From Victivallales bacterium (GTDB lineage Bacteria; Verrucomicrobiota; Lentisphaeria; Oligosphaerales; Oligosphaeraceae): a stretch of 64,000 nt of DNA. Positions 10,380 to 28,827 of the stretch are shown here, piece by piece. Location of the stretch: the NCBI GenBank assembly GCA_017617415.1, contig JAFZWH010000093.1:26218-90217 (forward strand). Reading direction: 5' to 3'. The notes below the pieces were generated by a model that searched no databases, was not told the DNA's origin, and worked only from the letters and a program-made list of their open reading frames with translations. A program made the translations under genes and the position numbers. The stretch's first letter is position 1. Each line of letters starts with the position of its first letter.

Positions 10380-10778
10380 TTATTCCAGCCAATTTTCGAG
10401 TTTGAGTTTCGGCACCCGCGCGAAATGCGTGATGTTGTTGGTGACCAGCGTCAGGTGCTCAGCCAGCGCGGCCGCCGCGATCAGCATGTCCATCGCGCCA
10501 ATTAACTTGCCTTGTTCTTCAAGGTATGTGCGCAATTCCGCGTATGCTTGGACAGCATTGCTGTTCCAGGCAAGACAAGGCATCGCCCGACAAAACTCAT
10601 CGACTTTCTCGATGAGGCGCTGGTTTTTCCGGCGCAGCGCCTCATGGCGCAATTCTGCTTCGGTGAGACAACAAATGCACACGGCATCAAGATACTTGGC
10701 GAACTTTGCCGTGGCATTCGGATAACGGTTGCTGATGATATACGATGCCGTATCCGTATCAAGCATATATTGCAACAT
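10380..10778 (-). CDS. vapC: PIN-domain toxin VapC
   Basis: 132 aa. N-terminal LDTD acidic motif, central EL..G and C-terminal TNN..HF are typical of VapC. The start codon overlaps the vapB stop by 1 nt (TAATG). Confidence 0.85.
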   Translation of the reverse strand: MLQYMLDTDTASYIISNRYPNATAKFAKYLDAVCICCLTEAELRHEALRRKNQRLIEKVDEFCRAMPCLAWNSNAVQAYAELRTYLEEQGKLIGAMDMLIAAAALAEHLTLVTNNITHFARVPKLKLENWLE

Positions 10779-11008
10779 TAGAAAAGATCCCGTTCTTGAA
10801 TGGTTTGGGCATCATCACGAGGAACCTCGAAATCTGGAAAGGCCGGTCCTGACAGGAATTTCTCCAGCAGTTTTTTCCGGTCGATGGGCGAGAGGATGAT
10901 TTTGTTGCCCTTCTTCTGGATTTGTACTTCCGATGTGTTGAAGCGATATTTCTTTGGGATGCGCACGGCCTGCGAACGGCCAGTCATGAACACTTTTGCA
11001 GTTTCCAT
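10778..11008 (-). CDS. vapB: AbrB/SpoVT-type antitoxin VapB
   Basis: 76 aa. The N-terminus (AKVFMTGRSQAVRIPKKYRF) matches the swapped-hairpin AbrB/VagC-type antitoxin fold. It lies directly upstream of the PIN gene. Confidence 0.8.
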   Translation of the reverse strand: METAKVFMTGRSQAVRIPKKYRFNTSEVQIQKKGNKIILSPIDRKKLLEKFLSGPAFPDFEVPRDDAQTIQERDLF

Positions 11009-12563: not shown

Positions 12564-12806
12564 TTAGAGCCATTCCTTGGTGCCGTTGATGTAGGTGCTC
12601 TCGAACTCGTCGTCGGATTTGGTGAGGTAGATGATTCCCTCGATGAGTCCGAAAATACCGCCGATGCCGCAGACGAGTCCGAGAATCAGCTGGATGATTC
12701 CGGCCTTGATGTAGCCGAGGTAGAACTTGTGTGCGCCAAGCCAGCCGAGCAGAATTGCGAGGACACCGGCGACGATTTTCTTGTTTTTCGCTTCTTCGCT
12801 TGCCAT
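12564..12806 (-). CDS. TM2-domain small membrane protein
   Basis: 80 aa with two TM helices and TM2-like LLGWLGAHKFYLG and GIGGIFGLIEGIIYL segments. Confidence 0.7.
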   Translation of the reverse strand: MASEEAKNKKIVAGVLAILLGWLGAHKFYLGYIKAGIIQLILGLVCGIGGIFGLIEGIIYLTKSDDEFESTYINGTKEWL

Positions 12807-12847
12807 GTTGTTTTCTCCTTGGTTTTGGGGTGGGTTGGGGGCTCGCC

Positions 12848-12909
12848 TTACAAGTCGAAGGTGAGCTGGTTGGGGTCGTGGTAGGGGCTGCGACGCCCGC
12901 GGCGCTTGG
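12848..12909 (-). pseudogene. Displaced duplicate of the mutS 3' end (last 20 codons plus stop)
   Basis: 60/62 nt identical to 13673-13734. It would encode KRRGRRSPYHDPNQLTFDL-stop, the same as the MutS C-terminus. No upstream mutS body is attached. Confidence 0.85.
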
Positions 12910-12922
12910 ATGGAAGGGGGAT

Positions 12923-13393
12923 TTATCCGGGGGCGACCAGTGGGCTTATCGAAGCCTGGGAGTTAAATTGTTCGAGAGTGACGACTTGGATTTCCGGCAG
13001 GGTTTGGAGTCTTTTGTCGTTGGTAATAAATGCCTTGCACTTGGTTATGATGGCGGTTGCCAGATGGAGCGCATCCAAGGCTTTAAGTGCCTCGTGACAC
13101 GCTCTTAGGCGTGCGGCCTCCAAGGCAATCTCTTGGTTGACAGAGCAAATGGAGACATTCATTCCCGTCAGGAATGTCTTGAAATTCTCGATGGATTGCA
13201 AGTCATGATTGGCATACGGATATGTGCAATATTCTTCAAGAGTGACTGCGGAGGTGACCAGCGGCATTTTTTGATAGCAGTGCCTGAAAAATACTCGGGC
13301 AGGATGGAAAAACAGCGAACTATGCTCCAAGTAGTATATGAACAAGGCGGTATCCACATACATTCTGGCAACGCCGTTCTTAAATTCGGTCAT
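12923..13393 (-). CDS. PIN-domain toxin
   Basis: Motifs YVDTALFIY (N-terminal Asp), TLEE, DALHLATA and FITNDKR. The start is set to Met at 13393, a 14-nt overlap with the antitoxin stop. The longer ORF-track start at 13525 would run through the antitoxin gene. Confidence 0.8.
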   Translation of the reverse strand: MTEFKNGVARMYVDTALFIYYLEHSSLFFHPARVFFRHCYQKMPLVTSAVTLEEYCTYPYANHDLQSIENFKTFLTGMNVSICSVNQEIALEAARLRACHEALKALDALHLATAIITKCKAFITNDKRLQTLPEIQVVTLEQFNSQASISPLVAPG

Positions 13394-13601
13394 AGTCTCT
13401 GATCTCCCGAATATATTCGTCGGCGCGGTTTGCGCGTTCGGTGTGTCGAACCAGTTTGTCAAAGGCGAAGGCTTCCTGTTCTTCGCTATGCTTGTCCTTC
13501 TCTTCCATTTCCCGAATGAAATCAAGGATCAAGAATACCTTCTGATTCGGCAACACATCGATGAGCGTCTTTGCCAATTCTTTAGGAGTAGTCGTTTCCA
13601 T
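13380..13601 (-). CDS. Putative antitoxin (DUF2281-like small acidic protein)
   Basis: 73 aa, overlapping the downstream PIN gene. The LPNQKVFLILDFIREMEEK segment resembles antitoxins that pair with PIN toxins. The family call is by eye only. Confidence 0.6.
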   Translation of the reverse strand: METTTPKELAKTLIDVLPNQKVFLILDFIREMEEKDKHSEEQEAFAFDKLVRHTERANRADEYIREIRDYDRI

Positions 13602-13633
13602 TGCCTTCCTTGCCTCCTCTTTTCATAAGATAC

Positions 13634-13654
13634 TTGCAAAAATGAATTTTGCAA
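13634..13654. promoter_or_regulatory. Palindromic operator-like site upstream of the antitoxin gene
   Basis: TTGCAAAA-ATGAA-TTTTGCAA has perfect 8-bp arms. It lies 33 nt upstream of the antitoxin ATG on the minus strand. Confidence 0.35.
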
Positions 13655-13672
13655 ATATCTCTGTTATGACTT

Positions 13673-16231
13673 TTACAAATCGAAGGTGAGCTGGTTGGGG
13701 TCGTGGTAGGGGCTGCGCCGCCCGCGGCGCTTGGTTTCGGCGAGCTTCGGGCGCTTGGCGTCCTCTTCGTCGAATTCGTTGTTCTCCAGATTCGTGAGCA
13801 CCTGGTCGGCGCGGTCGATGACGATTTTCGGGATGCCGGCGAGCCGTGCGACGTGGATGCCGTAGCTCTTGTCAGCGGCTCCGGGCACGATTTTGCGCAG
13901 GAACATGATGCTCTCGCCCTCTTCCTTCACCAGCACGTTGTAGTTCTTGATGCCAGGCTTGGTGAGCGGGAGGTCGGTGAGTTCGTGGTAGTGCGTGGCG
14001 AAGAGGGTGCGGGCCTTGGCGGACGGGGTGTCGTGGAGGTATTCGGCGATGGCCCAGGCGAGCGAGAGGCCGTCGAAGGTGGAGGTGCCGCGGCCGATTT
14101 CGTCCAGGATGATGAGGCTCTGCGGGGTGGCGTGGTTGAGGATGTTGGCGGTCTCGACCATCTCGACCATGAAGGTGGACTGCCCGCGCGAGAGGTCGTC
14201 CGCCGCGCCGACGCGGGTGAAGATGCGGTCGGCCAGGCCGATAGTGGCGCTTGAGGCGGGAATGAAGGAGCCCATCTGCGCCATCAGGACGAGCAGCGCG
14301 ACCTGCCGGATGTAGGTGGATTTGCCCGCCATGTTGGGGCCCGTGATGAGGCCGATCTGCTGGTCGGTGGTGTTGAGCACGCAGTCGTTGGGCACGAAGG
14401 CCGAGCCCTCGGCGTGTGCGTCCAGCACGGGGTGCCGACCGTCCCGGATTTCGAGAATCGGCGTCTCGGCGATGGCGGGGCGGGTGTAGTTGTAGCGGAT
14501 GGCGTCCTCGGCGAGGGCTCCCAGGCAGTCGATGTTGGCGAGGGCGCGGGCGGTGGTCTGAATCACCGCAATCTGCTTCACGACGGCCTCGCGGAGCTGC
14601 CCGAAGAGCTCGAATTCGAGCGCCTGCGCCTTCTCGTCCGACCCCAGCACCTTGTCCTCGATTTCCTTGAGTTCGGGGGTGATGAAGCGCTCGCCGTTCA
14701 CGATGGTCTGCTTGCGCATGTACTCCGGCGGAACCAGGTCCAGGAAGGACTTGGAGATCTCGATGAAGTATCCGAAGACCTTGTTGAAGCGGACCTTCAG
14801 GGACTTGATGCCAGTGCGCTCCTGCTCCTTGAGCTGGTAGTTGGCAATCCAGTCCTTGCCCTCGGTGGAGGCTCTCCGCAGGAGGTCGAGGTCCGCATTG
14901 AAGCCGTCGCGAATCATCCCGCCGTCGTGGACGGCGACGGGCGGCTCGTCCACCACCGCCTTGGCGATGAGCTCCACCAGCTCGGGCTGTTCGGAGAGCT
15001 TCTCACATTCGTCCAGAAGCAGTCCCGCATGGGCGTTGTGCAGGATGGCCTTGAGGCCGGGGAGCTCCTCCAGACCGCGCCGCAGGACGATGAGGTCGCG
15101 GGCGGAGGCGTTGGTGCCCACGCTGAGGCGGGTGACGGTGCGCTCGATGTCGCGCACGGCGGAGAGAGTCTCGCGCAGTTCGGAGAGGAGCATCGGCTGT
15201 CCGGCGAGGTCCTCCACGGCATCCAGCCGCGCCTCGATGGCGGGCTTGGACTTCAGGGGACGCAGGACCCACTCGCGCAGGAGGCGTGCGCCCATGGGGG
15301 TGATGGTCTTGTCCAGCACGGAGATGAGGGTGTTGTCCTTGCCGTCGGCGAAGATGGGATCCACCAGCTCGAGGTTCCGCTGGGAGATGCGGTCGAGCAC
15401 GAGGCAGTCGTCGGACTGGTAGGAGGCGATGGCGGTGAGGTTCGCGGCGTCCTTGCGCAGGGTGTTCTGGGCGTAGTGGAGGATGGCGCCGGCCGCGCCG
15501 ATGGCGGGTTCGTAGCCGCGGCAGCCATAGCCGTCCAGAGACGCGACCTGGAAATGGCGCAGGAGGTCGCTTCGTGCCAATTCGACGTCAAAATGCCAGT
15601 CCTCCACGCTGGTCCAGACCAGCTGCTGCGGGAGGTCGGCAGGGAAGCCTTCGTTCTGCCAGCGCGAGAGCAGACTGGCGGGGGCCAGGCATTCGGCGGG
15701 CTTCAGGCGGTTGAGTTCGACCTCCAGCGCTCCGACGCCCATGGGGATTTCGGTGATGCGAAACTCAGCGGTGGAGAGGTCGAGCGAGGCCAGCCCCCAG
15801 CGGTTTTTCATCGGCAGAAGCGCCACGAGGTAGTTGCTGCGGTTGGACTCCAGCAGCGTGTCCTCCATCATCGTGCCAGGCGTGATGATTTCCGTGATGT
15901 CGCGCTTCACCAACCCCTTTGCCAGCTTCGGGTCCTCAATCTGGTCCGCCAAGGCGACCTTGTAGCCGCCCGCCAGGAGCTTCGGGACATACTGCCGAAC
16001 CGCGCGGTAGGGGATGCCGCACAACGGCGCGCCCGCTCGGCTGGTCAGCACGACGTCCATCAGCGGAGCGGCGATTTTGGCGTCCTCGAAGAACATCTCG
16101 TAGAAGTCGCCCATCCGGAACATCAGCAGCGTGTCCGGCGCGAGCTGGCGCTTCGCCTCGGCATACTGACGCATCCCCGGCGTGAGTTCGCCCGACAGGC
16201 TGGCGTTTTTGGTTGGTTTGGATTCAGACAT
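13673..16231 (-). CDS. mutS: DNA mismatch repair protein MutS
   Basis: 852 aa with TPGMRQY..FRMGDFYEMFFEDA at the N-terminus, Walker A GPNMAGKSTY, and DEIGRGTSTFDG. Confidence 0.95.
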   Translation of the reverse strand: MSESKPTKNASLSGELTPGMRQYAEAKRQLAPDTLLMFRMGDFYEMFFEDAKIAAPLMDVVLTSRAGAPLCGIPYRAVRQYVPKLLAGGYKVALADQIEDPKLAKGLVKRDITEIITPGTMMEDTLLESNRSNYLVALLPMKNRWGLASLDLSTAEFRITEIPMGVGALEVELNRLKPAECLAPASLLSRWQNEGFPADLPQQLVWTSVEDWHFDVELARSDLLRHFQVASLDGYGCRGYEPAIGAAGAILHYAQNTLRKDAANLTAIASYQSDDCLVLDRISQRNLELVDPIFADGKDNTLISVLDKTITPMGARLLREWVLRPLKSKPAIEARLDAVEDLAGQPMLLSELRETLSAVRDIERTVTRLSVGTNASARDLIVLRRGLEELPGLKAILHNAHAGLLLDECEKLSEQPELVELIAKAVVDEPPVAVHDGGMIRDGFNADLDLLRRASTEGKDWIANYQLKEQERTGIKSLKVRFNKVFGYFIEISKSFLDLVPPEYMRKQTIVNGERFITPELKEIEDKVLGSDEKAQALEFELFGQLREAVVKQIAVIQTTARALANIDCLGALAEDAIRYNYTRPAIAETPILEIRDGRHPVLDAHAEGSAFVPNDCVLNTTDQQIGLITGPNMAGKSTYIRQVALLVLMAQMGSFIPASSATIGLADRIFTRVGAADDLSRGQSTFMVEMVETANILNHATPQSLIILDEIGRGTSTFDGLSLAWAIAEYLHDTPSAKARTLFATHYHELTDLPLTKPGIKNYNVLVKEEGESIMFLRKIVPGAADKSYGIHVARLAGIPKIVIDRADQVLTNLENNEFDEEDAKRPKLAETKRRGRRSPYHDPNQLTFDL

Positions 16232-16233
16232 AT

Positions 16234-18738
16234 TTAGGTGAAGTACTCCACGTCGGGATTCAGGAATCCATATTCGTAGATTTGTGGAAGGAGCTTTTCA
16301 CGCAGGGCGTCGTGCGCGGACTTCAGTGCTGCGAGTTCGGCATTGGCAAGTCCAGCGGCCTTAAGGGCCTGGCGGACTTGGTAGATGCCGACGTCCCAGG
16401 TCTCGATATGCCAGTCCATCCACTGCGTGTTGCAGAGTTGCTCGTAGAAGACCTGGTAAAGTTCCTTGGCGGCGTCCAGGAGTGCCTGCGCCTCGGAGGA
16501 GAGAGCATGCGCCTTCAGCCATTTGGCCAGAAAGCGGTCCTCGTTGGCGGCGGAAAGCTGCAGCGTGAGGTCTGACAGGCCGCATTTCCATTTGCGTATT
16601 TCACTCAACTGGAATGGAAACAGCTGATTCTGGATTTGCCAGACACTGTCTTGGTATTGGACATTGCGCAACGAGACCGCGTAGTTGGAGGGCGCGAAGG
16701 CACTCCAGACCACGCAATCGGTCACGAACTCCTGCGGCAGTTCGGCCGTGGGTGCATAGAAAGAGTCTTTGTTGTTGGTCCAAGTCAATTGAGGTATTCG
16801 TTTGACGGTATGGACGACCATCGCGTACTCGTAATTTTCCTTGGTGACGGAGAAGGCTCCGGCGTTTGCGTATGGTGCCGAAAGAAGACAGGTGGCACCT
16901 TGATTCTGCATGTCATCACCTTTGCTTACCAGAGAAAAAAGGAATCCTTCTGCCACATGGTTACGCTGATCGCGGTTGTTTGTCATCAGGTTGAAGGGAC
17001 TCACAAAGGTGGGCATGATAGACTTGCCATCCCACTTGGGGCGCGGACACCACTTGTTGAGCATCGCTGTGCGTTTGACGGACGAGAGCTGTTTTTTTCC
17101 TAGCTTTTCATTGACATTGTTAAAGATGTCGAAAGAAATCTTTTGTCGTTCAAGATGCCGATGCTGAGCAAGATTCCAAATTAAGAAACTAACTGCAAAT
17201 TGTCCTTTGGCGCCATAGAAGTTTTGTGAGGAAAACGCAAAGCCGCGCCTATAGACATATTGGAAGAAACCATCGCGGACTTTCTGATCGTTGTTGGAAT
17301 TAATGTACTTTAGTGGTGAATATAGGCAAAGCCGTGCGTCTTTTCCCTCGAACTCCTTTGAGATGCGGAAGAGAAATTGGGTGAAGAGTTCACGGCTGGC
17401 CTCGCCATAGTCTTCGTCGTTCATCCATTCGCGGATGGCGGTCATAGAGACGTTGTCCTTGGAACGCTTGCCGGTTTCGCCGCTTTTGGTGTTCGCGGTG
17501 GCGAAGGGAGGGTTGATGAAGACAATCCACTTAAGCTTGGGATTCGCCAGGTCAGTCGCCAGATTCGCCGGCATTTTGCGTTTCGTGCCGTAGGACAGTT
17601 GCCCCGCGAGCAAGCCGACATCATCATTGAGATAGTCATATTGGAAACAAGTCGCTCCAGGGAAAATCTTCTCGCAGTATTTTGCATCGTCCTCCTCCAT
17701 GGTGGAGATGTAGCAATATGGCAATGCGGAGCTGGGCAGATTGAACTCCAGATTTCCGGTGCCGGCGGCCATGTCCCAGAAGCGCCATTCGCCAGATTTC
17801 CACCACTCCTTGCCAATTTCGCGCTCAAGATATTGAAGGCCTTTGGCGGCGAACTCGATAGGCGTGTAGAACTCGCCGGTGAAGCGCCGACGGTAGTCCT
17901 CGGTGAGGCGGTCGGCTTTCTGTCGCATCATCGCCATCTCCTCTGGCGGAATGCGTTCGAAATTTTGCCAGAAATGCTGATAAAGGGTTGGTTGGACGGA
18001 CTTTCGGATGAAATTGCCATCGCCCGTGACATCAAAAAGCACCTCGCCTTTGGGGCGAAGGACAGATTTCCCCTGTTCCAAGTCGGCGAAGAAATACTCG
18101 GAGACCTTGCGGCCGTTGTGGACATATTTGCCGAAGAGCTTCTCCCAGTAGTCATAGACCTCCAGGAAGTTCTGTTCGGTGATGACCTTCTTGTCGAGGT
18201 CGGTGAAAAGCGACGGGGTGAAATTCCTGCGTTCCTGTATTTTCTCGATGAATTGCTTTTCCTCCTCTGGAAGCGTCCAGTCATAAACATGCAGTTTTTT
18301 GCAGCATTCGCATTTGGCGATGGCCGCGCAGAGTTTTGGACAGGGTGTGGAGGGGGCGCGATCCCAGTCATAACGGTCGTCCTGCTCGGCATAGAATTTT
18401 GCGAATTTGCTGGTGCGAAGCAGGAAGCCGGACTTCTTATCTGCAATGCAAATATTCGGCGGGAGCGGCGACTTTACGACGCTGAACTTCAATCGCCGTG
18501 CGTAGTACATCGTCTGGGCGATGGCTTTGGCCCGCTCGTCGAGGTTCTGGAAGTTCCGCTCATATTTGAACTCGTAGAGAATCGCTTCGGTGTAATGGTC
18601 AATTGCACCAAGCGCATTGAGCTTCATCCCGAAGAATCTGCAGAACTCGGCCTTAATTTCCTCTTCCTTTTTGCAGGCTTGAAGTGCTTGGTAGAGGCCG
18701 TTTTGGGGGATTTTTGGGGATTTTACCATGAGAAACAA
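16234..18738 (-). CDS. Fused N6-adenine DNA methyltransferase, type IIG restriction-modification-like
   Basis: 834 aa with gamma-class motif order: FYTP (aa 290), DMAAGTGN (aa 322) and NPPF (aa 409). The N-terminus carries a D47-X8-E56-X-K58 nuclease-like motif and a Cys cluster (CPKLCAAIAKCECC). A ~400-aa C-terminal region lacks recognisable motifs and is a putative target-recognition region. The gene is visibly AT-richer than its flanks. Confidence 0.7.
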   Translation of the reverse strand: MFLMVKSPKIPQNGLYQALQACKKEEEIKAEFCRFFGMKLNALGAIDHYTEAILYEFKYERNFQNLDERAKAIAQTMYYARRLKFSVVKSPLPPNICIADKKSGFLLRTSKFAKFYAEQDDRYDWDRAPSTPCPKLCAAIAKCECCKKLHVYDWTLPEEEKQFIEKIQERRNFTPSLFTDLDKKVITEQNFLEVYDYWEKLFGKYVHNGRKVSEYFFADLEQGKSVLRPKGEVLFDVTGDGNFIRKSVQPTLYQHFWQNFERIPPEEMAMMRQKADRLTEDYRRRFTGEFYTPIEFAAKGLQYLEREIGKEWWKSGEWRFWDMAAGTGNLEFNLPSSALPYCYISTMEEDDAKYCEKIFPGATCFQYDYLNDDVGLLAGQLSYGTKRKMPANLATDLANPKLKWIVFINPPFATANTKSGETGKRSKDNVSMTAIREWMNDEDYGEASRELFTQFLFRISKEFEGKDARLCLYSPLKYINSNNDQKVRDGFFQYVYRRGFAFSSQNFYGAKGQFAVSFLIWNLAQHRHLERQKISFDIFNNVNEKLGKKQLSSVKRTAMLNKWCPRPKWDGKSIMPTFVSPFNLMTNNRDQRNHVAEGFLFSLVSKGDDMQNQGATCLLSAPYANAGAFSVTKENYEYAMVVHTVKRIPQLTWTNNKDSFYAPTAELPQEFVTDCVVWSAFAPSNYAVSLRNVQYQDSVWQIQNQLFPFQLSEIRKWKCGLSDLTLQLSAANEDRFLAKWLKAHALSSEAQALLDAAKELYQVFYEQLCNTQWMDWHIETWDVGIYQVRQALKAAGLANAELAALKSAHDALREKLLPQIYEYGFLNPDVEYFT

Positions 18739-18742
18739 TCCA

Positions 18743-20143
18743 CTATTTCAGAATTCGATTGGCGGCGAGGACGCCAGAGAGCAACGCGCCGACAATGCCC
18801 AGGAGACCCTGGTCGGTGCCGGCGAGCGTGAGGTTTGGGACGCCGGTCGCGCCGTCCGCGAATTTGTCCGGCGAGCCGTAGATGGCGCCGTTGGCGTGTC
18901 CGGTGAAGCGGCAGAAGGTATGCGGCGTGTAGAGGTCGAGGAATTTCGCGTGACCGGCGAGGCGAGGGTAGTAGGCACCCAATTGCGCCAAGAGCGTCTG
19001 CGCCAAGATGGACTTGATGCCAGGAGACATTGCGTCTCGACAGAGGTCATTATGGAGCGGTCCCAGACTGGCGATAGGCGCACTGAGGCGGAGCATCCGA
19101 GTCGGTGTCACACCGACGTAGTTGTCTGGCACGCAGACCAACAGGGAGTCCGTCGGGGCAGTCGCCGACATCGGTCGGAAGGCGAAATTCGACTCCAGCC
19201 CAATGAACTGCATGCAGTCGGTGAGGCCGTAGACCGCAGGAGCGTCGTCCAGTTCAAAGAACGATTCAACGAACTGCACCTCGCCAGGCTGGGCATTTGA
19301 CAATGGCGCGGGAGCGTCGGCGTCGCCGAGCAGTTTCCGCGTCTCCACGGCGCCAATGGTGGAAAGACAACAGTCGGCAGTGAAAATCTGTCCTGAATTT
19401 TCCAGAATTGACTGAAATTTTCCAGAATTGTCCAGGTTGATTTTCGTGACGCCACAGCCCAGGTGAAGTTTGGCGCCGGTTTCCAGAAGGCGTGAAGTCA
19501 GATGTTCAATGACGGGCCGCATGCCATCCTGTGGCCGTGCGAAACCTTCGATGAAGATGCTCTTGAAAAGCGTCGCAAAGGCACTGAAGGGCATCTGGTC
19601 ACCCCAGGCATTGCCGAAGAAGAAGACGGGGAGGCAGAGCAGGTCATGCAACCGCTTGGATTTCAAATGCTCGGCGAGAACCTTGCGGGCGGGATGCTCG
19701 GATGCTGGCGCATCCGCGTAGGCGCATTGCTCGATGCGCTCCACGAGTGCCTCGAAGCCCTTGCGGTCCTCTGGGAATTGCGTAGCGATGCGTTTGCGGA
19801 AGCCCGCGAAGTCGTTATCCAGCGGGAGTTCCGTGGTTCCGCAACGGATGAGCGAGTGGCTCTGCGGGCAAAGGTGGAGGTCTTCACGACGCAGCCGCAG
19901 CTGCCGCAGGGTGCGGTTGAGCGGCGCGGCGGTGTCCGCAGGGGATGCGAAGTTGGTGAAGGCGTGCAGCCCCGTGTCGAAGACACGTCCGTCGCGCTCG
20001 TACCAGGAGTTCAGCCCACCGGCCTTCGTGTGCGACTCGAAGACTCCCACGCGCTTCCCAAAATGCGCAAGACGGATGCTGGCGGCGAGCCCCGAAAGTC
20101 CCCCGCCAATCACCACGACATCGTATTTTGAGTTGAAAGTCAA
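18743..20143 (-). CDS. FAD-dependent oxidoreductase (phytoene desaturase/RetSat-like)
   Basis: YDVVVIGGGLSGLAASIRLAHFGKRVGVFES..AGGL dinucleotide fold and an FDTGLHAF block. The ORF-track start is TTG. Confidence 0.8.
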   Translation of the reverse strand: MTFNSKYDVVVIGGGLSGLAASIRLAHFGKRVGVFESHTKAGGLNSWYERDGRVFDTGLHAFTNFASPADTAAPLNRTLRQLRLRREDLHLCPQSHSLIRCGTTELPLDNDFAGFRKRIATQFPEDRKGFEALVERIEQCAYADAPASEHPARKVLAEHLKSKRLHDLLCLPVFFFGNAWGDQMPFSAFATLFKSIFIEGFARPQDGMRPVIEHLTSRLLETGAKLHLGCGVTKINLDNSGKFQSILENSGQIFTADCCLSTIGAVETRKLLGDADAPAPLSNAQPGEVQFVESFFELDDAPAVYGLTDCMQFIGLESNFAFRPMSATAPTDSLLVCVPDNYVGVTPTRMLRLSAPIASLGPLHNDLCRDAMSPGIKSILAQTLLAQLGAYYPRLAGHAKFLDLYTPHTFCRFTGHANGAIYGSPDKFADGATGVPNLTLAGTDQGLLGIVGALLSGVLAANRILK

Positions 20144-20184
20144 AAGGTTAAAGGTGAGAGTACTGCTGGCGCCTCGCCAGCAGA

Positions 20185-20275
20185 GAGGTTAGAGGTTAGA
20201 GGTGAAAGGTGAAAGGAGTTTAAAGGTAAAAGGTAAAAGTGCAGGTCTCAAATCTCAGATCTCAGGTCTCAGGTT
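20185..20275. repeat. Degenerate 7-bp-periodic array (13 heptads)
   Basis: GAGGTTA x2, GAGGTGA, AAGGTGA, AAGGAGT, TTAAAGG, TAAAAGG, TAAAAGT, GCAGGTC, TCAAATC, TCAGATC, TCAGGTC, TCAGGTT. It lies just upstream of the oxidoreductase start at 20143. Confidence 0.8.
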
Positions 20276-26446: not shown

Positions 26447-28012
26447 ATGACCACCCTGACCGTTGATAGCCATGTCTTCAGCAAGCTCATTTATGAGCGC
26501 TCGGTGATTTTGGTGTCCACGGCGGATCGAATGCTGACCGGTGGGGCGGAAGCCTTCCAGCTTACTAGGCCGCTTCTGGGCGTGCTGCTCCAGGAGTCTA
26601 CCCAACTGGAAGAACTATTGGATGCATACGGCGCACGTATCAACCAGCAATGGTTCCCCTTCCGGCTGCATGTGGCTACTATTAAGAACTTCAGTACCGC
26701 TGGCTACGAGCTGCTGCACCTGCGGTCCACCATCCAGAATTATGACTTCCAGGGCACGCACCCGCATTTCCGTAGTGCCACGGAAGACGCCATCGATTTC
26801 GTGGCTTCTTTCATCTTCTGCTCGCTCCATGGATTGCTGGAAGATACCAAGCAATTTGGATGGCCGCCGCCTGAGGCGCTTCATGGATATGACTTTACCG
26901 AGAATCTCCCGGCCGGCCGGCTCCCTAAAAATCGCACTATCACCAGCCCCACCTCCGCCCAGCAGCTGGTCATCAACCTCGCGACCGATTTCCTCAACAA
27001 CACCGAGGATGCCAAATTCCTTGACAATGCGGACAAATGCCGCGCCCCCGACTGGAATGGGCTCAACTTCGACCTCCTTACCGAAACCACCTTTCTCATT
27101 CTGGAGGGAAAGTTCCACACCATGCAGTCGCTATACGACACCTATATTTCATTCAGCGACATTGAGGGCGCGGACACCTCTTTGCGTGCTCTGCGCGGAC
27201 ACATCAGCGTGGTGCTCCACCTCCTGAAGATCGCGACGATTTTTATCCATTTCTACGAGCGCCACCTCAAGGTGCAAAGCCATGAGCTCTTTTGCCACGA
27301 ACACTGCGTGCTGGAAGGGAATTGGTATATGGAGGTGCTTACCCACTACCTCTGCCATTACGCATACGAATTCCTGACCAGTGCCCGCGGACTGTGCCAG
27401 CACATGCTGCAACACTATGCGGTCATTGAGACCCGCGAGGTGCCTGTTCCACCCTACTTCGGTTTCCACGTGCGACCTTCCGCCCTGGTCTCTGCCATTG
27501 TACGTCACTACGGGGGAAAAGTCATGCTAATCCTTGATCGGGAGTATGATGCAGGAGCACCGATGAATCTTTTCCTTGTCAACGAGTGGGTGAATCAGCT
27601 TAAGCGCCAGCACGTCGGAGAGGAACTACACAAGATGGACGAGCTTCTACGGGAGACACAGACGCAGCTCGACAGTGGCAAAATCACAAAAGTCACTGCC
27701 GTACGCAATATCATACGTGCGCTGGCGCAACACGATGTCATCAACGTCCTAAAATACCCGTTGAATGTCGAACCCATCATCAATAGCTCCAGCGCACCCA
27801 CTCTGCTGGAACTCATGCAGACTATCGTGGCAACCTTGCTGGCCCAGCGTGAACTCAATATCATCTACCCTATCAAAGTCAAGTTCCGCGGTGATGCACG
27901 AGTTCTTAAGGACATTGAAATCCTCGCCGCTAACGGCTATGGGGAAAACGAGACGGGCTCCAACATCCCGTTGCCGCCGGAACTTACCTATTTGACCTTT
28001 TCGCGAGGATAA
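26447..28012 (+). CDS. Hypothetical 521-aa protein with C-terminal interrupted HPr-like domain
   Basis: Residues ~330-380 (PYFGFHVRPSALVSAIVRHYGGKVMLILDREYDAGAPMNL) match the HPr N-terminal half, including the active His. Residues ~476-500 (IKVKFRGDARVLKDIEILAANGYGE) match the HPr C-terminal half. About 90 aa are inserted between them. The N-terminal ~330 aa are unrecognised and His/Cys-rich. Confidence 0.55.
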   Translation: MTTLTVDSHVFSKLIYERSVILVSTADRMLTGGAEAFQLTRPLLGVLLQESTQLEELLDAYGARINQQWFPFRLHVATIKNFSTAGYELLHLRSTIQNYDFQGTHPHFRSATEDAIDFVASFIFCSLHGLLEDTKQFGWPPPEALHGYDFTENLPAGRLPKNRTITSPTSAQQLVINLATDFLNNTEDAKFLDNADKCRAPDWNGLNFDLLTETTFLILEGKFHTMQSLYDTYISFSDIEGADTSLRALRGHISVVLHLLKIATIFIHFYERHLKVQSHELFCHEHCVLEGNWYMEVLTHYLCHYAYEFLTSARGLCQHMLQHYAVIETREVPVPPYFGFHVRPSALVSAIVRHYGGKVMLILDREYDAGAPMNLFLVNEWVNQLKRQHVGEELHKMDELLRETQTQLDSGKITKVTAVRNIIRALAQHDVINVLKYPLNVEPIINSSSAPTLLELMQTIVATLLAQRELNIIYPIKVKFRGDARVLKDIEILAANGYGENETGSNIPLPPELTYLTFSRG

Positions 28013-28827
28013 AGGTTGGCATCGACGATTGACGCGGTGGACTCCGAGCCTGACGATTGACGCCTTTCATACCATATAGCATAGGTTTGACTGCAGAGGT
28101 CCAATGACCACAACGGGTCACCTTCATGGTCAAGTCCAAGATAACGGCTATAGGAATATTGTCCACGTTTTCGCAGACGTTGCTTCAAAAGGCGTATTTC
28201 GTTCTGGGTTCCTAACGCAAAATGACCGGAATACTTGACACTGTGGCTGGCCGCAACTATCGCTCTTCGCCCCTGTTGACGTTCCATCAGTTTCCGCTGC
28301 CAATCCAAGAACTCTTTGATGGACTGCATTTTGAGTGTATTCACAAGTAGCGCACGATCCACAATGGATACTTCGGCATCGCAATTTTGCAATTCATGGT
28401 AGGAACAGTATTTCCAGTGAATTGGATCCATGCCTTGTTGATGGTTGAGGGCATTTGCATCAATATAGGATATGACATTCTTGAAATGTGATGATGTGCC
28501 GATATGCGTAGAAGAAAATCGGTCGCGCCAAAAGTGCCCTTTTATCCCATTTACTCGGTTGAAGTGCTGGGCCATCCGGCCAGCCAGAGATTGCATTGCA
28601 CGACTGACCCGAGTAACATCGGCTCCGACTTTGACCAGTAAGTGAATATGGTTCTTCATAATGCAATAACCAAGAACAAGCAGACCGAATTTTGCAATGA
28701 CCTCCTTGAGCAACCAAAGATAGTATTCACGCATTTCTTCACTCTCGAACAGAAATTTCTGCCATTCGCATTGCTGGGTGATGTGGATGAAACTCTCGCT
28801 TTGCAGATTGCGCGCACGTCGTGCCAT
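27988..28827 (-). CDS. IS200/Y1-transposase-like protein (RAYT-like)
   Basis: HUH motif NHIHLLV, a GHFWRDRF block and a Tyr motif YIDANAL, as in REP-associated tyrosine transposases. There is an extra ~100-aa C-terminal extension. The gene is AT-richer than its surroundings. Confidence 0.7.
   Translation of the reverse strand: MARRARNLQSESFIHITQQCEWQKFLFESEEMREYYLWLLKEVIAKFGLLVLGYCIMKNHIHLLVKVGADVTRVSRAMQSLAGRMAQHFNRVNGIKGHFWRDRFSSTHIGTSSHFKNVISYIDANALNHQQGMDPIHWKYCSYHELQNCDAEVSIVDRALLVNTLKMQSIKEFLDWQRKLMERQQGRRAIVAASHSVKYSGHFALGTQNEIRLLKQRLRKRGQYSYSRYLGLDHEGDPLWSLDLCSQTYAIWYERRQSSGSESTASIVDANLYPREKVK

Follow-up and report, generated by a model that had tools for sequence, protein, structure and literature searches.

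A low-GC module of 763 bp that encodes a putative toxin-antitoxin pair lies at the 3' end of mutS, between two copies of the last 62 bp of that gene, and its presence in some related assemblies and precise absence from others make it a real insertion polymorphism, a discrete unit of gain and loss. The stretch of DNA analysed (the window) is 64,000 nucleotides long, and its mutS gene (13673..16231, minus strand; 852 aa) specifies a protein that matches all five MutS Pfam domains, MutS_I to MutS_V, with E values of 1e-23 to 1e-84. The functional tail copy (13673..13734, minus strand) is the true mutS 3' end, and the second, orphan copy (12848..12909, minus strand) still has its 19-aa peptide and stop codon intact. 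A repeat search placed these 62-nt direct repeats 825 nt apart with 60 of 62 positions (97%) identical, and a 29-nt core of the repeat has exactly two occurrences in the window, where shuffled sequence would be expected to give 0. Both mismatches, CGG/CGT (Arg) and GAT/GAC (Asp), are at third codon positions and synonymous, as the first-pass annotation of this DNA had stated. That annotation also gave the repeat as the last 20 codons of mutS plus the stop; the stop is indeed included, but the coding part consists of the last 19 codons (KRRGRRSPYHDPNQLTFDL) and only 2 nt of the preceding one, followed by TAA. The orphan adjoins the TM2-domain gene (12564..12806, minus strand; Pfam PF05154, E=8.6e-17), the native downstream neighbor of mutS, and lies, as had been noted, 41 nt upstream of its start at 12806. 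Those 41 nt are the native mutS-TM2 intergenic sequence (12807..12847, minus strand), which begins GGCGAGC, the same start that follows the mutS stop codon in relatives with an empty site.

Since the inserted unit brings the full last 19 codons and the stop codon, MutS is still made with its normal C-terminus. The consensus for β-clamp binding in the C-terminal region of MutS is QL[S/D]LF (PMC5027486). The window's MutS has QLTFDL at its extreme C-terminus, inside the duplicated segment, and the MutS proteins of relatives have QLSLFEL, QPWLFEM, QPMLF, QPSLFD or QLTLF at the same place. QLTFDL is thus probably the MutS β-clamp-binding motif, which would give the tail a role in contacting the clamp. 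The mutS gene is itself mosaic among the three closest lineages.

The base composition of the cassette is foreign (~47% GC against ~64% in its flanks). Its larger gene (12923..13393, minus strand) encodes a putative VapC-like PIN-domain toxin of 156 aa that matches Pfam PF01850 at E=7.6e-13 (49.6 bits, cut-off 23.6) and has the acidic residues D14, E53, D107 and D126; the family is rare, with 12 homologues among 5.8 billion proteins. Overlapping this gene by 14 nt is an ORF for a putative 73-aa antitoxin (13380..13601, minus strand), which gave no match to Pfam or NCBIfam even at E<=10. A small upstream ORF is nevertheless kept beside PIN homologues of 85%, 56% and 38% identity, and the partner of the 38% homologue alone has a sub-threshold match to Unstab_antitox (E=0.006). 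Between the window and the related locus L107, dN/dS is ~0.16 for the toxin gene and ~0.24 for the 73-aa ORF, ratios that point to purifying selection on both. We therefore regard the module as a putative type II toxin-antitoxin system of the PIN/VapC-like class.

Little else lies between the tail copies. A non-coding segment of ~40–47% GC (13602..13672, minus strand; AAGTCATAAC...) starts directly after the mutS TAA, is identical to the L107 cassette at 65 of 71 positions and presumably carries the promoter of the antitoxin gene and its ribosome-binding site. Within it, at 13633..13653 (no strand assigned), is an operator-like palindrome with 8-nt arms, TTGCAAAA and TTTTGCAA, around a 5-nt spacer; both arms are conserved in L107, and the spacer there differs by one base. 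At the other end a 13-nt linker (12910..12922, minus strand) joins the PIN stop codon to the orphan tail and holds the two in one reading frame. In that frame the PIN stop is followed by five codons, made up of the linker and the repeat's first 2 nt; compared with L107 they show differences at 5 of 15 nt and no indel.

The host is an uncultured gut Victivallales bacterium. Related Victivallales assemblies contain precise empty-site alleles of five kinds, each with one tail copy. Alleles L121–L123 have the full gene order of the window with the cassette absent, L106 and L116 read mutS-TAA-GGCGAGC-TM2, L113/L114 read mutS-TAA-AAGCCGTCAAG-vapBC-OEP, L111/L112 have mutS-TAA, 14 nt and OEP, and the L120 allele carries a degraded vapBC remnant. 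The region downstream of mutS thus occurs in TM2, OEP, vapBC and degraded vapBC states in this clade. The first-pass annotation had proposed a search for alleles in which the mutS stop is followed directly by TM2, and L106, L116 and L121–L123 are such alleles; it had also named a tail duplication lacking any cassette as evidence against insertion, and there was none among the related assemblies. It had suggested that relatives be searched for further copies of the cassette, and in L107 the same module with two tails is found in a second downstream context. That context is shared by L107–L110, in which the sequence after the orphan is exactly that found after the single tail in L113. Filled and empty junctions therefore match in each of the two contexts, identical to the base, from which we infer a breakpoint inside the tail. 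Because relatives lack the cassette at the precise site, it is a real element of gain and loss, and the matching alleles in two contexts indicate that a toxin-antitoxin operon of less than 1 kb can act as a discrete unit of this kind. The insertion is old, since divergence of the cassette between window and L107 (dS of 0.15–0.29) is close to that of mutS (0.19). The two filled lineages are related and could be accounted for by one gain plus one precise loss (L113), followed by a single recombination into a new context, so mobility may be rare.

The orphan tail is not decaying. Its four variants across lineages have 7 variable sites, all of them synonymous third positions (P = 3e-5 to 2e-4), and 6 of the 7 have both alleles in common with functional tails. 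Neutral change would be expected to leave 9.6–11.7 differences between the window and L107 orphans, which have 3. The orphan peptide is invariant, whereas two residues (Y/C/S and H/N/D) are variable in the functional tails of relatives that lack the cassette. Between the L008 and window orphans there are 3 SNPs within 13 nt, with the rest of the 686-nt L008 contig almost identical, and an AGC codon common to both window copies is AGT in close relatives, including the L008 orphan. In our own reading of the allele table (11 sequences), all four combinations of alleles are present at several pairs of sites; these could also result from recurrent mutation where a site is two-fold degenerate, but the SNP mosaic of the tails as a whole suggests variable crossover points and conversion tracts. 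It appears that the orphan either keeps recombining with functional tails or is selected. The first-pass annotation took the synonymous mismatches to mean that both copies had evolved as coding mutS sequence, presumably in different lineages; the restriction to synonymous change is borne out, but the mosaic alleles and the shared AGC codon point instead to continuing exchange.

How chromosomal toxin-antitoxin loci move is poorly understood. The explanation that we favor, with roughly even confidence, is that the cassette has been gained, lost and moved by recombination in the 62-bp tail, most likely by the homologous recombination system of the host. Starting from a cassette already joined to a mutS tail, the 825-bp inserted unit, that is, the toxin-antitoxin module plus one 62-bp tail copy, would enter at the mutS end, and the displaced second tail copy would come to lie after the toxin gene. 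The unit would pass between chromosomal backgrounds by a crossover inside the tail, either as a Campbell-type single crossover of an 825-bp circle or as a double crossover with mutS for its long arm and the orphan tail for its short one. Gene conversion between the tail copies would keep the orphan resembling coding mutS, and loss by deletion between the direct repeats would presumably be penalized by the toxin-antitoxin pair, if it has the stabilizing role we suppose. A RecA-type agent is probable here and a site-specific recombinase acting in trans less so, even though, at 62 bp, the tail is a short substrate for recombination of the former type. Such a duplicated gene end, if it acts as a homology arm that is portable, would explain in a simple way how loci of this type move, and this would be a unit with no recombinase of its own, bounded solely by the duplicated end of an essential gene. 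A crossover between the repeats would, in addition, restore or reshuffle the region with which MutS probably contacts the sliding clamp.

It is possible, but in our estimation unlikely, that an integrase element of the tyrosine or serine type, with the mutS 3' end in its attP, once integrated here and that the cassette is what remains of it or its satellite, either decayed to its addiction module or moved in trans as an 825-bp unit. The first-pass annotation had pointed to an attL/attR-like geometry in which the element carries its own copy of the target's 3' end, and the geometry does match: repeats of a conserved gene's 3' end up to its stop, foreign cargo downstream and single-copy empty sites are classic attL, attR and attB, and in both contexts the junctions agree to the base. 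The SNP mosaic, however, is explained by host homologous recombination at least as well as by a decayed island or movement in trans, and alleles shuffled between copies at several positions fit poorly with one fixed crossover point. Searches of the cassette and of 37 of the 49 main window ORFs for integrase and transposase families gave a single hit, an IS200-like ORF 15 kb away, and gene calls and Pfam marks in the related mutS loci fetched include no integrase; these domain searches uphold the earlier description of the cargo as lacking a recombinase and consisting of a palindrome beside a PIN toxin and its small partner ORF. There is no significant dyad in the repeat (its folding is no better than that of shuffles, z=-0.52), and no tRNA or known RNA was found at the insertion site. 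No tail duplication around a different cargo was seen at this site, and the cassette ends were already extremely compact before the lineages split (71 nt and 13 nt of non-coding DNA, with no pseudogene debris).

Genomic islands and prophages that integrate at the 3' end of a tRNA, tmRNA or protein gene carry a copy of that end, so that, as at the window's mutS, the gene is made whole again on integration and its native end is displaced. The insertion here differs from them in having no integrase, no tRNA and a single toxin-antitoxin operon, and in a block of identity that stops exactly at the stop codon. Closer in size are the Xer-dependent pdif modules of Acinetobacter plasmids and the toxin-antitoxin cassettes of chromosomal integrons, ~1-kb units whose enzyme is encoded elsewhere; like the window's cassette they can contain nothing but a toxin-antitoxin operon and the promoter that belongs to it, between short sites for recombination. 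The pdif and attC sites are dedicated, non-coding and have a characteristic dyad, whereas the site here is the coding end of a housekeeping gene. An integron gene cassette was considered and rejected, given a repeat with no attC-like dyad and the lack of an integrase or intI gene in the window ORFs scanned.

The concept of CIMEs, cis-mobilizable remnants of ICEs or IMEs that keep flanking att sites and have lost integration and transfer genes, is established (PMC5704250). They resemble the window in their att-like direct repeats that take in the target gene's end, their recombinase-free cargo and their precise empty sites. CIMEs are, however, recognized through a cognate integrase-bearing ICE or IME at the same site, often in tandem (PMC5704250), and none was found in the window ORFs scanned or the related mutS loci fetched; the window's SNP mosaic, moreover, suggests variable crossover points. 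Integrase elements that replace an end of mutS and leave the host's own end orphaned have been described at its 5' end (Chu et al. 2017, mBio; PMC5296598). Like the window's cassette, these elements target mutS and supply a replacement gene end such that MutS stays functional, with an orphaned host gene end on the far side, direct-repeat similarity at their ends and a presence that varies among relatives. They differ in inserting at the N-terminal HTPMMQQ motif, in their size (4 to >150 kb), in encoding their own integrase and in supplying a promoter and start codon; the cassette here has 763 bp of cargo and no integrase, at the extreme 3' end. Excision circles have been demonstrated for them (PMC5296598), whereas the window's cassette is known from assembled sequence. 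We do not place it in their class, given its insertion at the last 19 codons, away from the HTPMMQQ site, and the lack of a related integrase. The annotation's suggestion that the mutS 3' end is an undescribed integration site stands insofar as our literature search found no report of mobile elements there, but mutS as a target of mobile elements was already known from its 5' end (PMC5296598). The cassette is thus of a broadly familiar kind, a gene-end-duplicating insertion; what is new is the mutS 3' end, to which it extends the link between mutS and mobile DNA.

We think it distinctly unlikely that the insertion was an ancient one-off event and is now static, having arisen by illegitimate or replication-slippage duplication, with the two contexts produced by ordinary rearrangement and large-segment exchange and with empty relatives in which the cassette was never present or was lost a single time. 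Co-divergence of the cassette with mutS, the close relationship of the filled lineages, the general instability of DNA downstream of mutS in the clade and a PIN family too rare to reveal spread beyond it are all compatible with such a history. A static orphan should nevertheless decay neutrally, yet it has no non-synonymous and too few changes beside linker codons that diverge freely; it shares alleles with functional copies, and the sequence after it equals the empty-site junction in both contexts, which requires a breakpoint in the tail. The enterobacterial mutS-rpoS region is likewise polymorphic, and mismatch-repair genes there are mosaic (PMC4209514 and work cited there). The portions of that account used here describe, as in the window's clade, a hotspot of gain and loss of foreign segments downstream of mutS and a mosaic mutS, but in other organisms and with other cargo, and mention no duplication of the terminal mutS codons.

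It is improbable that the orphan is kept because it is used, either as a readthrough tail that takes the toxin toward the replisome or with the tail pair as a dedicated, portable attachment site. The latter would define a class of toxin-antitoxin cassettes, minimal and with no recombinase, for which the clamp-binding end of mutS is the homing site. Translation of the orphan, by occasional readthrough of the PIN stop (TAA) into a toxin with a MutS clamp-binding tail kept by direct purifying selection, seems to us very improbable; such a tail would direct a toxin of RNase fold to the replisome. The reading frame is kept in the window/L008 and L107/L109 types across a linker with no indel, and an invariant peptide with 7 of 7 synonymous sites, against two variable residues in cassette-free functional tails, is what such selection would leave. 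But an in-frame arrangement has a chance of 1/3 and is common by descent, TAA with A as the next base is not known to be leaky, the amino acid is changed in 3 of 5 linker codons, there is no start codon from the PIN stop to the tail, and alleles in common with functional tails account for the pattern with no need of translation.

An artefact of assembly or scaffolding, which several contigs of other samples ending within the orphan might suggest, can for practical purposes be discounted, as the first-pass annotation had required for its interpretation, because the copies differ at 2–3 positions, a diverged lineage has the same structure, and independent contigs (L001, L100, L107 and L108) from several samples and two assemblers, with contigs built at k=141, which exceeds the repeat, cross the two-copy structure. 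The breaks of contigs at the orphan copy in several samples may instead hint at co-existing alleles or excision.

The repeat search returned two 62-nt direct repeats in the window, at 12848-12909 and 13673-13734, which are identical at 60 of 62 positions and lie 825 nt apart start to start; a 29-nt core of the repeat can be matched at exactly two places in the 64 kb, versus never in 100 shuffles. The mutS ORF (13673..16231, minus strand, 852 aa) carries five of five MutS Pfam domains and ends at 13673, and the right copy is therefore the true end of mutS, as the first-pass annotation had proposed, although it comprises 2 nt of a Thr codon, 19 codons (KRRGRRSPYHDPNQLTFDL) and TAA rather than the last 20 codons. 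The left copy, on the same strand, is an orphan: 13 nt separate it from the stop codon of a PIN-domain ORF upstream, and 41 nt from the ATG of a TM2-domain gene (12564..12806) downstream. The two differences between the copies (CGG/CGT and GAT/GAC) are both synonymous, so that the repeat, its silent mismatches and the position of the orphan are all as that annotation described them. The 763 bp between the copies are about 47% GC, compared with about 64% in the flanks, and hold on the minus strand the PIN-domain ORF (12923..13393; PF01850, E=7.6e-13) and a 73-aa ORF (13380..13601) that shares 14 nt with the start of the PIN ORF and had no match in a family search. A palindrome (13633-13653; arms TTGCAAAA and TTTTGCAA, 5-nt spacer) lies inside the 71 nt that separate the mutS stop from the 73-aa ORF. 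The duplication is not an assembly artefact, a possibility that had been raised at the outset: the structure is spanned by contigs assembled independently, with different assemblers, from several ruminant-gut metagenomes (L001, L100, L107 and L108), among them k=141 contigs that run from the mutS end through the cassette and the orphan copy. Within the repeat, a GC-rich hairpin was no better than those of shuffles, three terminator-like matches were on the strand opposite to the genes and no more numerous than in shuffles, and no sigma-70 consensus promoter was found by search.

MutS proteins of the nearest reference and closer metagenomic relatives end in QLSLFEL, QPWLFEM, QPMLF, QPSLFD or QLTLF (the nearest reference relatives are from Lentisphaeria/Victivallales, at 55-62% identity among the matches listed for six query peptides, some of which are broadly conserved MutS motifs). 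These ends agree with the bacterial beta-clamp-binding consensus QL[S/D]LF, which in the C-terminal region of P. aeruginosa MutS mediates clamp binding (PMC5027486), and the window has QLTFDL at the same place. On this motif and its position, the duplicated 62 bp probably encode the clamp-binding tail of MutS, and an insertion so near the end of mutS would sever that tail unless the insert brought a substitute. A metagenome scan with the strict degenerate tail pattern YHDPNQLTFDL gave no matches; most lineages have N or D-N at the window's H. With a relaxed pattern, two useful loci came up, along with four unrelated low-GC contigs. Unrelated AT-rich reading frames on the low-GC metagenome contigs L118 and L119 also end DPNQLTFDF or NPNQLTFDF, which suggests that this clamp-binding-type C-terminal motif recurs in other, possibly phage, proteins.

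Source names and NCBI protein names place the window in a Victivallales bacterium known from ruminant gut metagenomes. We read the allele states at this site from the contigs of the 23 members of a MutS cluster formed at 90% identity or more. Empty alleles in which the mutS stop leads directly to TM2, which an insertion at this point predicts, are present in L106, L116 and L121-L123. The last three (mutS 90% identical in nucleotides) have the order amine oxidase, mutS, TM2, amine oxidase, vapBC, KAS, ACP, which is that of the window minus the cassette, and a single tail copy; L106 and L116 read mutS-TAA-GGCGAGC...-TM2, with the same seven bases that stand 3' of the window's orphan copy. A second context has an OEP efflux gene downstream. 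In L113/L114 (MutS 99.1% identical in amino acids, mutS 96.9% in nucleotides), which also have the window's 834-aa gene upstream, mutS-TAA is followed by AAGCCGTCAAG, 152 nt in total to a vapBC pair and then OEP; L111/L112 have 14 nt between mutS-TAA and OEP, and L120 has a degraded vapBC remnant there, and all of these are empty. Further cassette copies do exist among the relatives: in L107-L110, whose PIN protein is about 89% identical to the window's, the cassette lies between two tails and is followed by AAGCCGTCAC/AAG-vapBC-OEP, an arrangement equal to that of L113 plus 825 bp. Thus the cassette occupies two downstream contexts, each with a base-precise empty counterpart, and under any history one or more recombination breakpoints must have landed within the 62-bp tail after the first insertion. 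A single tail copy goes with every empty allele and a pair with every filled one, and no relative carries the duplication without the cassette. In the OEP context the similarity of the two copies runs about 7 nt beyond TAA (AAGCC.T), and from this the cassette-borne tail copy may have its origin in a capture from a context like that of L113; a duplication that seemed to run about 60 nt past the stop codon there was rejected as not significant (shuffle p = 0.17-0.5), only about 7 nt being common. In several samples contigs (L003, L005, L007, L009 and L012) end within the orphan tail or right at its end (window 12848-12877), and in one sample two contigs that meet at the orphan tail overlap by only 14 nt; alternative junctions that co-exist in those populations may be the cause. 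In L002/L011 (ENA ERZ28653804 scaffold_2363) the gene calls make mutS look interrupted by a 436-aa antisense ORF, but this is an artefact produced by a 10-N scaffold gap within the gene and no insertion. The contigs of the closest PIN homologues (L103, and L104 with adapter at its end) are truncated or too short to show flanks.

The four distinct orphan sequences (window, L008, L107 and L109) encode an identical 19-aa peptide; they vary at seven sites, all seven of them synonymous third positions in the mutS frame, a result with a chance probability of 3e-5 to 2e-4, according to the transition bias. Between the window and L107 orphans there are 3 differences in 57 sites, where neutrality would predict 9.6-11.7, and the five codons from the PIN stop to the tail differ between the same two at 5 of 15 nt. 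Functional tails also segregate for both alleles at six of the seven variable sites, and several site pairs in the tail-site table show all four allele combinations, which could come from recurrent mutation at two-fold degenerate sites and are read from few sequences. Both window copies have AGC at a codon that reads AGT in close relatives, among them the L008 orphan, which lies in the same context. The L008 and window orphans differ by three SNPs within 13 nt, and the rest of the 686-nt L008 contig has only three, all in the PIN gene. The orphan variation thus carries signs of gene conversion or repeated crossover among tail copies at variable positions. The first-pass annotation had concluded that both copies evolved as mutS coding sequence, presumably in different lineages. 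This view is too simple: the synonymous-only changes, the allele sharing and the AGC in both copies point to ongoing exchange between them and not to two tails that evolved apart.

Divergence between the window and L107 is dS 0.19 and dN 0.009 for mutS, dS 0.15 for the antitoxin gene, and dS 0.29 and dN 0.045 for the PIN gene; the high GC3 of mutS (0.90) may depress its dS and weakens the comparison with the cassette, which we do not use to decide between one gain and two. Judged by these values, the cassette, with a divergence about equal to that of its host gene, is no recent arrival, and both of its genes are under purifying selection. Each filled lineage differs from the empty L111 by a dS of about 0.38-0.40. 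Among the three closest lineages mutS is a mosaic, in which the first 600 nt join the window with L113 (informative sites 14 versus 1) and the remainder is unresolved or leans to a grouping of the window with L107; such a pattern indicates that mutS has undergone homologous exchange. The history may have been two gains, or a single gain with one precise loss (in L113).

We favor, with middling confidence, an account in which an 825-bp unit (cassette plus one tail) would be gained, lost and moved between backgrounds through recombination in the tail, the most probable agent being host homologous recombination. The route could be a Campbell-type crossover of a circle, or a double crossover in which mutS provides the long arm and the orphan tail a short one; conversion between tail copies would keep the orphan mutS-like, and the toxin-antitoxin module would penalise direct-repeat deletion. 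The main rival, weaker though still plausible, is that the tails are the attL and attR sites of a site-specific integrase that left them behind or still acts on them in trans, as in CIMEs, which are recombinase-less, att-flanked remnants (PMC5704250). The junctions, identical base for base, and the gene-end geometry suit this reading, which was that of the first-pass annotation, but the extreme compactness of the cassette does not, and SNPs shuffled between tails are explained more simply by homologous recombination than by an enzyme with one fixed crossover point. Nor was an integrase found: the cassette encodes no recombinase, as had been noted; Pfam scans of 37 of the 49 main window ORFs gave a single mobility-type match, an IS200-like Y1 transposase ORF (27988..28827, minus strand, 279 aa; PF01797, E=2.5e-14; low GC3, 0.50); and the gene calls of the related mutS loci fetched include no integrase family and no other cargo bracketed by tails. 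No tRNA, tmRNA or Rfam family was found at the insertion site. A static, one-off insertion is improbable, since the orphan does not decay and the cassette lies in two contexts. Readthrough of the PIN stop into a clamp-tailed toxin is a speculation to which we give very little credence: stop, five linker codons and orphan tail share one frame in both lineages, but this has a chance of 1/3, and allele sharing accounts for the conservation without translation.

Small modules that carry only a toxin-antitoxin pair and are bounded by short sites are known, as pdif modules and integron cassettes. The PIN family found here is very rare (12 homologues in 5.8 billion proteins); its relatives on cyanobacterial plasmids are only 25-33% identical, and no relatives of the family or of the cassette were found in phage records. 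Mobile elements of 4 to >150 kb that target mutS do so at the 5' HTPMMQQ motif, with integrases and demonstrable excision circles, and like the window cassette they supply a substitute gene end and leave the host end orphaned (PMC5296598). In enterobacteria the region 3' of mutS is known as a mosaic hotspot, and mismatch-repair genes are known for recombinational mosaicism (PMC4209514). A literature search of incomplete coverage turned up no described toxin-antitoxin cassette that lies between duplicate copies of the mutS 3' end; to that extent the 3' end is, as first suggested, not a described integration site, but mutS itself is a known target at its 5' end. The cassette is a well-documented, real polymorphism, and the recombining, non-decaying orphan copy is the detail of interest.

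Two other features near mutS vary among these relatives, and neither has a flanking repeat, which rules out bracketing like that of the cassette. A second, canonical VapBC module of the tRNA-fMet endonuclease type (NCBIfam) occupies a low-GC islet at 10380-11008 (minus strand); copies about 73% identical in nucleotides are present in L107 (5698-6326) and L113 (6211-6839), with a degraded remnant in L120 and none in L111. Its end lies 3 nt before the next start codon both in the window, where KAS follows, and in the unrelated context of L107/L113, where OEP follows, and toxin-antitoxin pairs appear to enter the mutS neighborhood repeatedly. The 834-aa ORF (16234-18738, minus strand, lower GC), directly upstream of mutS with a 2-nt gap, is present in L113 and L001 and missing at the same position in L107, L111 and L121, and thus adds a second insertion polymorphism next to mutS; neither Pfam nor NCBIfam gave a match for it, and at residue 409 it has an NPPF motif as in N6-adenine methyltransferases. 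Upstream of the amine-oxidase gene that adjoins this ORF, a short array at 20130-20246 consists of four copies of about 31 nt with degenerate GGT(T/G)A(A/G)AG-type repeats.
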